Shown: one piece after another, positions 29,900 to 33,451 of the stretch | How the letters are laid out: each line of letters begins with the position of its first letter | How positions within the stretch are numbered: the first letter of the stretch is position 1 | NCBI GenBank assembly: GCA_030765335.1 | Contig: JAVCCU010000008.1 | Span: 3-64,002, forward strand | DNA length: 64,000 nucleotides | DNA from: Candidatus Kaelpia aquatica | GTDB taxonomy: Bacteria; Omnitrophota; Gorgyraeia; Kaelpiales; Kaelpiaceae | Reading direction: 5' to 3' | Translations under genes and position numbers: made by a program | The notes under the pieces: generated by a model | Seen by the model: the letters and a program-made list of their open reading frames with translations, nothing else | Told to the model about the DNA's origin: nothing | Database searches by the model: none

Positions 29900-31489
29900 T
29901 TAAGAGTCGTTGTTTACTAGAAGACTGACATCTATAAATCTTGATTTATCACTATCGAAATAGAACATATATCTTCTCCAAAAAGAAGGAAATCTTGAAT
30001 CTATACCAAGTATAATCTCATCATCAGGATAGAAAAAAGCTACGCCTTTAAAAGCTATCTCTTTCAATTCTTTTTTAGAAAATTCTACATTTTTTGGTTG
30101 TTTAATATAGGCAACGAACTCCTCTATTCTCTCGAGTGGAATGATTTTTTCAGAATCAAATTCGATATTGATAAATATTGGCAATTGACACCAACTATCA
30201 TATCTTGAAGTTTTTTTAATATATAAGAATAAATATGCACACGAACCTGGAAAAGCAGCAAATTGGTTTATATTATAGGGATGATTAACAACATACACTA
30301 CTGTTCGGGGATTACTAATTACTATAGTTTCTAGAGAATCAACCATGCTTTTCACGGTTTTTGAAACCTCTATAAAATCTCTCCCTCGTTTTATTCTGGA
30401 TTTAAAAGAGAGAATGAGAAACATTGCGGCCAACAGGCAGAAAAGTGCTTTTTTAAACTTCAAAACTTTACCTATATCAGTAAAAAACAAACTCCAGAGA
30501 AATCCCACCCCTATCAAAGGAATGTACAAGTATTTTTCACGTATTATTGGATCCGGATAATACAGTGCAGGCAAAAGAGTGATTCCAATCCAGAGTAAAG
30601 AAAATCGATAATGCTTATCTTTGATAATATAAACAAGGAAGAAATACCCTAATACAATTAACCACATCAAAAATACATCGTGATGTCGCATCATTAAAAA
30701 CTCTACTCCTTTCCCCTGAAACTGAAAGGGAATAAAAAGCAACTTTAGTCCAATACTTAAAAGAGGTAATCTTAAAAAATTTTCAGCTATTAATACACTC
30801 AGCCTTTCGTTTTCTAAGGCAAGAGAATTGCTGCATAAAACAAGTCTAATTATTAAGAATGTAGACATAATTAAAAAGAACGGCAAAGATAGAATAAGCT
30901 TCTTTCTTAAGATCCTTTGATCGTAAAAAAGGAGAAGAATAAGAATTAAAAGCGGCAAAACAACGGATGTCTCACGAGCAAAGAAAGCAATAATTGTCAA
31001 GAATACTGCCCAAATAAGACAAGCTTTATTTTTCTTCTCGATATAATTTAAAATTAAAATTAAACAGCAAAGCATGAAAAACACGGCCATTATTTCATCT
31101 ATTCGTCTAATAGTAAAGACAACGTTGGTATTCATATAATGAAGTCCGAAGATAGCTGCACAGAGGAATGAAATTAATCTATTTTTTGTAAGCTTATAAA
31201 TAAATATCATGACAAGAATACATACAATCAAATGCAAGAAGTGATTAATTAAATGGTAATAAAAATATGGTAATTCTAATTTTTTAAATGCTGTTAAAAA
31301 ATAAAATTGCAGCAACGGTCGATAGAATAATACTTCTTCTAGGTTCAGTGTTTCTACATGAACCTTATTCAGCCATTGAAAATCTTCACCAGTAAAAAAA
31401 GTTTTGTTCGGTGAAGTAAAGAAAATGGCGATATTTAAAATCAATAATAAACCTAGAAACAACCAGAATTTAGAGTTTGAAGGATTCAT
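29900..31489 (-). CDS. Large polytopic membrane protein of GT-C-like (PMT/ArnT-type glycosyltransferase-like) architecture. It is paralog 1, the last gene of the island operon.
   Basis: 529 aa ORF with 11 or more predicted TM helices over the N-terminal ~400 aa and a soluble ~130 aa C-terminal domain. The first extracytoplasmic loop carries an acidic GEDFQWL motif, and a later loop carries FQFQGKG. It is clearly paralogous to the ORF at 33528..34934 (shared blocks YRPLLQFYFL/FTQLFFHIL, AIFGLHYMNTNV/FIFSIHYINTAV and FQFQG/FDFQG). Composition is very A+T-rich. Confidence 0.55.
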   Translation of the reverse strand: MNPSNSKFWLFLGLLLILNIAIFFTSPNKTFFTGEDFQWLNKVHVETLNLEEVLFYRPLLQFYFLTAFKKLELPYFYYHLINHFLHLIVCILVMIFIYKLTKNRLISFLCAAIFGLHYMNTNVVFTIRRIDEIMAVFFMLCCLILILNYIEKKNKACLIWAVFLTIIAFFARETSVVLPLLILILLLFYDQRILRKKLILSLPFFLIMSTFLIIRLVLCSNSLALENERLSVLIAENFLRLPLLSIGLKLLFIPFQFQGKGVEFLMMRHHDVFLMWLIVLGYFFLVYIIKDKHYRFSLLWIGITLLPALYYPDPIIREKYLYIPLIGVGFLWSLFFTDIGKVLKFKKALFCLLAAMFLILSFKSRIKRGRDFIEVSKTVKSMVDSLETIVISNPRTVVYVVNHPYNINQFAAFPGSCAYLFLYIKKTSRYDSWCQLPIFINIEFDSEKIIPLERIEEFVAYIKQPKNVEFSKKELKEIAFKGVAFFYPDDEIILGIDSRFPSFWRRYMFYFDSDKSRFIDVSLLVNNDS

Positions 31490-32462
31490 ATCCAGATTGC
31501 AACCTTAAGTTCCAAGCCAAGTTAGCTTCAATGCGATTACTACACCCACAACTGCACTGAAAATCCAAATTTATATCGTTAATCTTTTTCTTAATCTTTT
31601 CTGTTTCTAATTTGGTTAGATCGATGGTGTGTTCTTGCAACTCCTGCTGTATGCAAGGGTACATTTTACCATTGGGGTCAATACGAAAGAAGATTTTCCC
31701 AAAAGCACAATCCATAGGTTTTAAATCAGGCCAATCTAGAAGGTATTTAAGTCCACTGAAAGAGTTGCTGATATTATTGCGATATTTAAAATCCATTTTA
31801 TAACGGATGATTCTCTTCACTGCTTCAACAAACACATCTTTCTGCGCTAATAAAGGATTGTGTTCCTTGGTTTTTAGAAAATAGAAGTTAATTGGTTGAA
31901 ACGCTACTGAGGTATGAAATTGATTTGCCAATAATATTAAATCTTCAATATAATCAGAATTGAGTTTATTTAGAGTGGCAGAGAATCTAACCTTTAAATT
32001 ATTGGATTGAGCAGCTTTTACCGCCAAGATTATACTTTGAAAAGAATCTTTTTGTCGGATTAAATCATGTATCTCCTCGGAACCTTCAATACTTAAAATA
32101 AGCATGTCCAACTGTTTTAGTTTTTGAATATTTTGAGACACTAGAGAGCCATTGGAGTTTAGACATACAAAAATACCCTTCTCTTTGGCATAATTAATAA
32201 GTTGGTAAATATTGTCTTTTACTAAAGGCTCTCCTCCAGTAAAATTTATCCTTTGCAGCCCTAACTGTCTTAGCTTATCTATTATTTCTAAAGCCTTCGA
32301 AGTTGAGACTTCGTCTGTTTTAAGATTCCAATCCTTACAATATTTACATTTATAGTTGCAACGGTATGTAACCGCCCAGCTTAAGGCTATTGGGGTTCTG
32401 ATTTTAAACAACTTTGCTTTTGCAAAACAACTTGCTATTGAAAGTTGAGATTTTAATTTCAT
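31470..32462 (-). CDS. Radical SAM enzyme with a C-terminal SPASM-type auxiliary Fe-S domain (paralog A).
   Basis: 330 aa ORF with a CxxxCxxC radical-SAM cluster motif RCNYKCKYC near the N-terminus. FTGGEPLV and LNSNGSL are typical MoaA/PqqE/anSME-class core blocks. The C-terminus has a SPASM pattern C-AFGKIFFRIDPNGKMYPC ... CSCGC. It overlaps the downstream membrane gene by 20 nt. Confidence 0.75.
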   Translation of the reverse strand: MKLKSQLSIASCFAKAKLFKIRTPIALSWAVTYRCNYKCKYCKDWNLKTDEVSTSKALEIIDKLRQLGLQRINFTGGEPLVKDNIYQLINYAKEKGIFVCLNSNGSLVSQNIQKLKQLDMLILSIEGSEEIHDLIRQKDSFQSIILAVKAAQSNNLKVRFSATLNKLNSDYIEDLILLANQFHTSVAFQPINFYFLKTKEHNPLLAQKDVFVEAVKRIIRYKMDFKYRNNISNSFSGLKYLLDWPDLKPMDCAFGKIFFRIDPNGKMYPCIQQELQEHTIDLTKLETEKIKKKINDINLDFQCSCGCSNRIEANLAWNLRLQSGYESFKL

Positions 32463-33451
32463 TATTTAATAACTTTCTGAATCGTCTTTAAAATAAGCCA
32501 TTTATGTCTTAGCAAAAACGATAGCTCTAATGATCCACAAAATCCACACCCATTACATACGACAGGCGGTAGAAGCTTAAAAGCTTCTTTAAAAGAAGTA
32601 TTCGCTATGTTAGGAAGATTCTCATTATAGCTAATCCTATCGCAAGGTAAAACAGTGCCATCGGAATCGATAATGCAAAATAAATGTCCTGCTGCACATT
32701 TTAATTGCTCATAATTTGGCCAACGATAAATATGATCGAGCATAGCTATGGAATTTCTGATATGCTTAGAGCTGCATCCATATTTTAATGAAATCAGTCT
32801 TTTAATTTTATCATGATAAACATTTTTTTCAGGATAAATATTTTTTAAATCCAGGGCATGTTTTACATTAAGTTTCAGGGGTTGAAAAGCAACAAAGGTA
32901 TTTAAGCTTCTGGCAAGATCAACTAAGTACTCTAAATGCTCGATATTATATTTTGTAATTGTGCATGCAAAACTGATTTTAATTCCGTTTTTTTGAGCAA
33001 TTCGAACAGATTTCATTAATTGATCAAACAAACCCTTTTTCTGACGCACAGAATCGTGAATCTCTTTAGGGCCATCTAAGCTCAGTTTTAATAAATCCAG
33101 GTTTTTTATCTCAGAGACTCTTTCTGGAACCAAATATCCGTTTGAATTCATGCTTACCGAAATACCTAAGTCTTTAGCTTGATCAATTATCAGCTTAATA
33201 TCATCTCTAAGTAAAGGTTCTCCTCCGCTCAGCGAAATCCTTTTCGTCCCCGCATCCTTTAATTCTTTGAGCAAAGCCAATACTACTTCGGTTTTAAGAT
33301 CTGGCTTGGGATTTTTCCAAAGATTACAGTATCTACATCTTAAATTACATCTATCAGTTAGTTGTAGTCGTACCGCAAGCGCTATTTTGCCACCTGAAAC
33401 AGAAGCTCTTAATGATCGAGTAAGGGAATTAATTTTAGTTAAAAATTTCAC
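32462..33451 (-). CDS. Radical SAM enzyme with a C-terminal SPASM-type auxiliary Fe-S domain (paralog B).
   Basis: 329 aa ORF with the radical-SAM cluster motif RCNLRCRYC, plus SLSGGEPLL and MNSNGYL. The C-terminus has a SPASM pattern CAAGHLFCIIDSDGTVLPC ... CNGCGFCGS. Its stop overlaps the start of paralog A by 1 nt (TAATG). Confidence 0.75.
   Translation of the reverse strand: MKFLTKINSLTRSLRASVSGGKIALAVRLQLTDRCNLRCRYCNLWKNPKPDLKTEVVLALLKELKDAGTKRISLSGGEPLLRDDIKLIIDQAKDLGISVSMNSNGYLVPERVSEIKNLDLLKLSLDGPKEIHDSVRQKKGLFDQLMKSVRIAQKNGIKISFACTITKYNIEHLEYLVDLARSLNTFVAFQPLKLNVKHALDLKNIYPEKNVYHDKIKRLISLKYGCSSKHIRNSIAMLDHIYRWPNYEQLKCAAGHLFCIIDSDGTVLPCDRISYNENLPNIANTSFKEAFKLLPPVVCNGCGFCGSLELSFLLRHKWLILKTIQKVIK

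Follow-up and report, generated by a model that had tools for sequence, protein, structure and literature searches.

We describe a six-gene operon within a 64,000-nucleotide stretch of DNA from Candidatus Kaelpia aquatica, phylum Omnitrophota (the window; contig JAVCCU010000008.1). The operon encodes two adjacent radical S-adenosylmethionine (rSAM) enzymes, rSAM-B and rSAM-A, a third rSAM enzyme with a B12-binding domain (B12-rSAM), two polytopic membrane proteins and a small membrane protein (Table 1). The unit exceeds the rSAM pair singled out by an initial annotation of this DNA, since the B12-rSAM and both neighboring polytopic proteins belong to it as well. We lean, with modest confidence, towards the reading that the operon is a minimal version of a widespread, rSAM-rich envelope glycosylation module, where a sugar would be tailored by radical chemistry and then transferred by glycosyltransferases of the GT-C type. 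The rSAM pair are most likely not peptide maturases. A non-peptide substrate is favoured because the family resides in a glycan and GT-C gene context, is found fused to DegT aminotransferases, has no recognition element (RRE) of the kind used for ribosomally synthesized and post-translationally modified peptides (RiPPs), and is accompanied by no conserved small open reading frame (ORF).

The two rSAM proteins are clear paralogues, with a similarity far beyond chance (BLASTP, 34% identity over 271 amino acids, E = 3e-58). They form the tandem of ~330-residue enzymes that was originally reported, including its TAATG overlap: at the junction AAATAATGAAA, the stop TAA and the start ATG share one base at position 32462. 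Both also carry the reported N-terminal cysteine motif CX3CX2C (RCNLRCRYC and RCNYKCKYC), with C35, C39 and C42 invariant in the subfamily alignments, and both belong to the radical SAM superfamily by PF04055 (101.4 and 76.2 bits, gathering threshold 29.5). The C-terminal cysteine array, which had been labeled SPASM-like, is real and conserved within each subfamily. C252, G255 and C270 are invariant (a CX12GX4C hairpin) and are followed by a triplet, C299xxC302xxC305 in the B type versus C303xC305xC307 in the A type. The label itself holds only for the first half of the domain. A full SPASM domain has seven or eight cysteines, and its seven-cysteine motif, CX9-15GX4C … CX2CX5CX3C … C, binds two auxiliary [4Fe-4S] clusters; each window protein has five C-terminal cysteines, consisting of CX12GX4C and either CxxCxxC or CxCxC. 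With the SPASM model TIGR04085 (cut-off 27) the two proteins reach 16.6 and 15.5 bits, in alignments confined to positions 1-37/48 of the 93 in the model, while PF13186 (cut-off 21.5) is marginal for rSAM-B (21.7-23.1 bits) and below threshold for rSAM-A (15.0). By these sequence matches the C-terminal domain is truncated and twitch-like, corresponding to the first half of the SPASM models. A twitch domain consists of the truncated SPASM beta-hairpin with cysteine ligands for a single auxiliary cluster, as in the BtrN, MoaA, SkfB and BlsE class, and both the cysteine pattern and the best structural neighbors predicted for rSAM-B (SkfB, BlsE and MoaA) are compatible with this type.

The AlphaFold2 model of rSAM-B has a mean predicted confidence (pLDDT) of 85. 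Its nearest PDB folds according to Foldseek are SkfB, BlsE, PqqE, CteB, SuiB, anSME, MoaA and viperin, all with template modeling (TM) scores of 0.6-0.67. A single helix (residues 3-19) precedes the first core strand at residue 26, and the rSAM core begins at about residue 25. An amphipathic N-terminal helix could hint at attachment to the membrane, but hydrophobic moments did not regularly exceed those of shuffled controls. Neither the whole proteins nor their C-terminal domains alone reached any curated cut-off when assigned to NCBIfam and Pfam subfamilies: the equivalogs PqqE, MftC, NirJ/NirJ1/NirJ2, AhbC/AhbD, MoaA, HpnH, viperin, SkfB and PapB scored 56-118 bits against cut-offs of 131-650, and the anSME and SCIFF-maturase models were absent from the 25 best NCBIfam matches listed for either protein. 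The best NCBIfam match of rSAM-B is the PTO1314 family TIGR03961. The alignment runs nearly end to end (rSAM-B residues 9-314 to model positions 8-310 of 332), but at 118 bits against a cut-off of 306 rSAM-B is no member, and that family is itself uncharacterized.

The rSAM-B family is large. A word-indexed search yielded 943 clusters (90% identity) at E<1e-10, and an exhaustive search yielded 1,988 representatives (50% identity) at E<=1e-30, nearly all of them 320-340 amino acids long among the matches listed. Those hits that carry a name stem from assembled metagenomes and belong to Omnitrophota, Elusimicrobiota and Patescibacteria; a scan with one genome per species, covering 80 loci, also included Myxococcota and some bins labeled as DPANN archaea. 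For comparison of gene neighborhoods we used 46 related loci and a set of 37 orthologue-level loci from other genomes, counting neighbors within 8 kb. Glycan genes accompany the family in 33 of the 37 orthologue-level loci, a B12-rSAM in 32 and a GT-C-like polytopic membrane protein in 28, with DegT aminotransferases (13/37), small GT2 glycosyltransferases (12/37) and flippase-like proteins (11/37) following; each locus holds one to seven rSAM paralogues without a B12 domain. The neighbor families, assigned by Pfam and NCBIfam, include PMT_2, YfhO, DUF2079, DegT, LPG_synthase_TM (TIGR00374, above cut-off), AsnB-type amidotransferase, Wzy_C and DUF362, and the small GT2 proteins of related loci best match AglJ, ArnC and PpgS, which are polyprenyl- or dolichyl-phosphate glycosyltransferases. 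A recurrent module, consisting of B12-rSAM, rSAM-B, a flippase-like protein and two consecutive GT-C genes, appears in three Elusimicrobiota loci (L004, L006 and L015), and its GT-C proteins belong to the same family as the membrane proteins of the window.

Gene fusions also bear on the substrate. Among the 150 best representatives, two have a length of about 735 amino acids and join the rSAM to a DegT/DnrJ/EryC1 sugar aminotransferase, in opposite domain orders (P0301, DegT-rSAM; P0362, rSAM-DegT). Each was found on at least two contigs from different samples; the fusion genes lie at 8001-10214 in L084 and L085, at 8001-10205 in L086 and at 3059-5263 in L087. Both reside in clusters with three to five PMT_2/DUF2079 genes (five in L086), further rSAMs and B12-rSAMs, and P0362 additionally adjoins a Glyco_transf_9 heptosyltransferase. 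DegT-family enzymes act on keto- and amino-sugars; the fusions therefore tie the rSAM to sugar chemistry. A parallel is offered by BtrN, the 2-deoxy-scyllo-inosamine dehydrogenase that works with the DegT-family aminotransferase BtrS in butirosin biosynthesis, where keto or amino sugars are reached independently of oxygen and NAD. The window family may be analogous. BtrN has a truncated SPASM (twitch) domain, to which the truncated, twitch-like domain of the window rSAMs would correspond, and the rSAM-B family is likewise coupled to DegT-type aminotransferases, here through gene fusions and neighborhood instead. In contrast, BtrN is shorter, belongs to an antibiotic pathway rather than an envelope cluster, and is absent both from the PDB sequence matches of rSAM-B at E<1e-5 and from its top 50 Foldseek matches; the window also has no DegT gene. 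In a Pfam census of 100 unlabeled neighbors, no epimerase/dehydratase family of the short-chain dehydrogenase/reductase (SDR) type had two or more members, while DegT is common. By analogy, the lack of a recurrent SDR family would fit an rSAM that supplies the keto-sugar, as BtrN does for BtrS.

Two structural comparisons further support a sugar substrate: the predicted rSAM-B fold is near that of BlsE, and in the PDB the B12-rSAM is matched best by the aminoglycoside diol-dehydratase AprD4 (6fd2, E = 3.9e-21). The cytosylglucuronate decarboxylase BlsE (7vob) is the second-best structural match of rSAM-B (E = 2.9e-15, TM-score 0.67 over 314 columns), and as a ~330-residue enzyme acting on a sugar ring it offers a precedent for a sugar-acting rSAM (PMC3715490). 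BlsE differs in sharing only 19% identity, in a sequence match confined to the rSAM core (residues 29-172), and in its substrate, which is a nucleoside antibiotic intermediate. The B12-rSAM itself is a conserved companion of the family, with orthologues of 43-56% identity in 22 of the 37 loci, located at most two genes from rSAM-B in 17 of them.

The curated matches of the B12-rSAM bring in an alternative, in which the target is a membrane lipid instead of a sugar. The enzymes would then modify the hydrocarbon part or the head-group of a lipid, or of a polyprenyl carrier, in the manner of HpnH/HpnJ (hopanoid side chain), Cds (calditol), GrsA/B or Tes/Mss, while handling of the lipid would fall to the GT-C-like proteins. 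Among NCBIfam models, the B12-rSAM is matched best by HpnJ and also by TIGR04072, a model for B12-rSAMs of lipid biosynthesis; HpnH matches both rSAMs, for rSAM-A from residue 2. The set of rSAM, B12-rSAM, GT2 and flippase-like protein mirrors hpnH/J/I/L. More broadly, when the hopanoid genes hpnH/hpnI/hpnJ/hpnK/hpnL are compared, related clusters reuse an rSAM of the MoaA/PqqE class, a B12-domain rSAM, a GT2 and a flippase-like LPG_synthase_TM. This alternative overlaps in part with the glycosylation reading: HpnJ has been proposed to rearrange a lipid-linked amino sugar, and a rearrangement or ring contraction of a lipid-linked hexose has been proposed for HpnJ and Cds (review, PMC13459092), which adds to BlsE and AprD4 as precedents for sugar-acting rSAMs. 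However, the scores lie far under the curated equivalog cut-offs (160 against 577.6 bits for HpnJ; 60-73 against 225), and those of the B12-rSAM against other models are likewise below threshold (BchE, 154 vs 481; BzaD, 140 vs 450; TIGR04072, 123 vs 360). A squalene-hopene cyclase was not observed in the gene context, the hpn genes offer no equivalent of the GT-C proteins, and the DegT fusions and many sugar genes point to a sugar moiety. We consider lipid tailoring unlikely. Tes and Gms-type lipid synthases were rejected as a specific comparison: the match to Tes (7tol) is limited to the rSAM core (E = 8e-12), and Gms and Tes, which have been described as aligning with each other, have full SPASM domains.

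We next weigh the possibility that the pair are peptide or protein maturases, either of the RiPP or of the anSME-like kind, whose substrate is encoded elsewhere in the genome. The thioether-forming sporulation killing factor enzyme SkfB (6efn), a twitch-type enzyme, is the best PDB match of rSAM-B both by sequence profile (1.7e-25, extending through the C-terminal cysteine region) and by fold (4e-16), and PqqE, CteB, SuiB and anSME follow. GT-C enzymes of the PMT type glycosylate proteins, and anSME requires neither an RRE domain nor an adjacent substrate gene. However, the SkfB alignment begins at SkfB residue 105, leaving its N-terminal ~100 residues with no counterpart in rSAM-B, the SkfB model TIGR04403 reaches 75 of the 300 bits required, and no other RiPP-maturase model in NCBIfam comes near its cut-off. 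An RRE is lacking, since the rSAM-B model has a single helix before the core, and a scan of eight proteins from the cluster and its flanks showed neither a PqqD domain (PF05402) nor any other additional domain. The neighbors are glycan genes, not proteases or transporters.

The absence of a precursor gene, as first noted, is borne out by a wider search. We surveyed all ORFs of 15-120 amino acids in either orientation between 29.6 and 36.9 kb and inspected their starts for Shine-Dalgarno sequences. Every intergenic one lacked a Shine-Dalgarno match and none was cysteine-rich, which leaves no precursor candidate in this interval and speaks against the suggestion of a short ORF that had escaped annotation. 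Across the 46 related loci, we clustered 569 small ORFs and found no family in more than three loci. The 83-residue transmembrane ORF is present and not cysteine-rich, as originally described; it has no Pfam or NCBIfam match and no counterpart in the 46 related loci. The initial annotation had left two branches, a non-peptide target (lipid, glycan or cofactor) or a precursor that is hidden or encoded in trans. Comparative evidence favors the former, while the latter finds no support as judged from one 64-kb window, and we give peptide maturation little credence. As a separate observation, two Omnitrophota clusters with rSAM and glycan genes contain 52-60-residue proteins with one transmembrane segment and a conserved KKWWLLP…AIYALF motif (L010, 4269-4427 and 5308-5490; L012, 6205-6384), which are not cysteine-rich and are absent from the window.

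The two polytopic membrane proteins of the operon are related to each other (27% identity, E = 6e-37), and from sequence and model comparisons they are likely GT-C proteins of the PMT_2/ArnT type. Such proteins are recognized by PF13231, the GT-C fold and an acidic residue in their first external loop. A homologue that is 56% identical to the 468-residue protein (P0122) carries the PMT_2 domain PF13231, and in the family alignment D35 is near-invariant within the consensus PFxWDD. A protein search with the 468-residue sequence gave four matches. The top 12 Foldseek matches of its AlphaFold2 model (pLDDT 63) are all GT-C proteins, although weak ones (E = 0.02-0.3, TM-score ~0.3). A PDB profile search aimed at GT-C identity was uninformative, its result being swamped by tetratricopeptide repeats of homologues.

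We infer a sugar as the substrate of the rSAM enzymes. In the glycosylation reading, the twitch-like rSAMs and the B12-rSAM would act in the cytoplasm on this sugar, either nucleotide-activated or carried on polyprenyl phosphate, and would attack one of its carbons by oxygen-independent C-H chemistry, which may be a hydroxyl-to-keto dehydrogenation, an epimerization, a decarboxylation, a C-methylation or a ring rearrangement. The PMT_2/ArnT-like GT-C proteins, as putative glycosyltransferases, would then hand the modified sugar over to an acceptor in the envelope, at the outer side of the inner membrane. Three-component systems of polyprenyl-phosphate glycosylation such as the Arn pathway (ArnB/ArnC/ArnEF/ArnT; also GtrA/B/C and CsbB/GtcA/YfhO) are comparable in that related loci contain an ArnB-like DegT, a GT2 matching ArnC, AglJ or PpgS, a flippase-like protein and a PMT_2/YfhO-type GT-C. 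In contrast, these loci have several rSAM and B12-rSAM genes where the known pathways have NAD-dependent enzymes. The three Arn-like components (GT2, flippase and GT-C) occur together in many related loci, for example L004, L006, L008, L013 and L028; the window holds just the GT-C-like genes and the rSAM parts.

Several points weigh against this reading. The GT-C assignment of both window membrane proteins is sub-threshold (PF13231, 25.0 bits for the 468-residue and 19.7 for the 529-residue protein; cut-off 26.1). The best single PDB match of rSAM-B is the RiPP enzyme SkfB. The family has no member from a cultured or studied organism, and the argument from gene context is one of guilt by association. 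The main weakness is that the pathway is locally incomplete: within its 64 kb the window lacks genes for DegT, a polyprenyl-phosphate GT2, a flippase-like protein and nucleotide-sugar enzymes, and tblastn with representatives of the first three gave no match anywhere in it; consequently, the sugar donor would have to come from elsewhere in the organism.

A further subset of loci bears on a different class of substrate. Orthologues of rSAM-B and the B12-rSAM have a NifH-like gene (276 bits) and two Oxidored_nitro genes as neighbors in four Myxococcota loci (L025, L030, L031 and L049). Group VI nitrogenase-like (NflHDK) clusters with a suite of rSAM genes have been proposed to synthesize a tetrapyrrole-type cofactor (bioRxiv 10.1101/765248; review, PMC13474568), and the passages of the published proposal considered here do not mention the glycan-type genes of these loci. 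The window enzymes could take part in such a novel cofactor synthesis, and NirJ, AhbC and AhbD are among their top NCBIfam matches. However, the NirJ and Ahb scores are 83-105 bits against cut-offs of 500-650, the Nfl genes occur in only 4 of the 37 loci, with the other 33 and the window having none, and the four Nfl loci themselves encode a GT-C protein of the PMT_2 family, a GT2 resembling ArnC/AglJ and a fusion of NTP-transferase and HAD. We regard cofactor synthesis as highly improbable for the window enzymes. A broader proposal, which we put forward only tentatively and as a possibility, is that the large rSAM family (~2,000 clusters at 50% identity), together with its dedicated B12-rSAM, constitutes an oxygen- and NAD-independent route to unusual sugars; that GT-C proteins attach the products to the envelopes of Omnitrophota, Elusimicrobiota, Myxococcota and the candidate phyla radiation (CPR)/DPANN lineages; and that the Group VI nitrogenase-like clusters act in the same glycan or glycolipid pathway, not in tetrapyrrole synthesis.

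Table 1. Genes of the rSAM operon in the order in which they are encoded (positions in the window)
Feature	Position	Strand	Remarks
Small single-pass membrane protein	36386..36637	(-)	First operon gene; 83 aa from TTG, 70 aa from an inner ATG (public gene calls)
B12-rSAM, 479 aa	34944..36383	(-)	PF02310 and PF04055; conserved partner of rSAM-B
Polytopic membrane protein, 468 aa	33528..34934	(-)	PMT_2/GT-C-like; putative polyprenyl-phosphate-sugar-dependent glycosyltransferase
rSAM-B, 329 aa	32462..33451	(-)	GTG start; truncated SPASM (twitch-like) C-terminal domain; large ~330-aa family
rSAM-A, 330 aa	31470..32462	(-)	ATG start; CxCxC tail; own smaller subfamily, paralogue of rSAM-B
Second polytopic membrane protein, 529 aa	29900..31489	(-)	PMT_2/GT-C-like; paralogue of the 33528-34934 protein

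The genes are tightly packed. Intergenic spacings in the operon are 76, 9 and 2 nucleotides, and the end of rSAM-A overlaps the start of the 529-residue membrane protein by 20 nucleotides (31470-31489). A 61%-identical relative (L088, 1781-1800) retains this overlap, a sign that translation of the rSAM may be coupled to that of the GT-C-like protein. All six genes have a GC content of 0.29-0.34, compared to 0.39-0.40 in the flanking HydG/HydF and YvcK/phosphotransferase system (PTS) genes, and the cluster ends at three tRNA genes (tRNA-Lys(CTT), tRNA-Leu(TAG) and tRNA-Gly(GCC)). The compositional island spans 29900-36637, with flanks at 29257-29582 and 36862-39607. L088, the nearest relative, has the matching operon end from rSAM-A to the membrane protein with different downstream and flanking genes, which suggests horizontal transfer; the operon is probably a self-contained, horizontally acquired module. 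The gene order of the window was also found on three other metagenomic contigs. A scan for promoters and terminators gave counts no different from shuffled expectation.

Directly upstream of the operon are HydG and HydF, maturases of [FeFe]-hydrogenase that both score above their NCBIfam cut-offs (36862-39860), preceded by an 85-residue TM1266-like gene; none of the eight proteins scanned between 29.9 and 39.6 kb was identified as HydE. We rejected a functional link to [FeFe]-hydrogenase maturation: Hyd genes adjoin the family in none of the 46 related loci, so that HydF/HydG stand beside the rSAM cluster only in the window and the adjacency is incidental. Past the tRNA genes (25522-29214), translations inspected by eye resemble a 651-residue glycoside hydrolase of family 57, a 414-residue YvcK-like protein and a 159-residue regulator of the PTS EIIA type.

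In kind, the rSAM pair is known, being twitch/SPASM-class rSAM enzymes. The pairing of this family with a B12-rSAM, its setting in GT-C clusters and its fusions to DegT appear to be undescribed, and literature searches found neither a described rSAM-rich GT-C cluster nor a description of the rSAM-B family. Sugar-modifying rSAM enzymes come almost entirely from antibiotic pathways (BtrN, DesII, BlsE, AprD4 and GenK). If the glycosylation reading is true, strictly anaerobic, uncultivated phyla would have a different surface-glycan chemistry, with radical enzymes replacing NAD-dependent ones, and the family would provide candidate biocatalysts for the C-H functionalization of sugars. There would also be a testable alternative role for the Group VI nitrogenase-like clusters, a question since 2020. 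The main value of the operon is as an entry point to a widespread, uncharacterized pathway, and it may allow the Group VI nitrogenase-like clusters to be interpreted anew.

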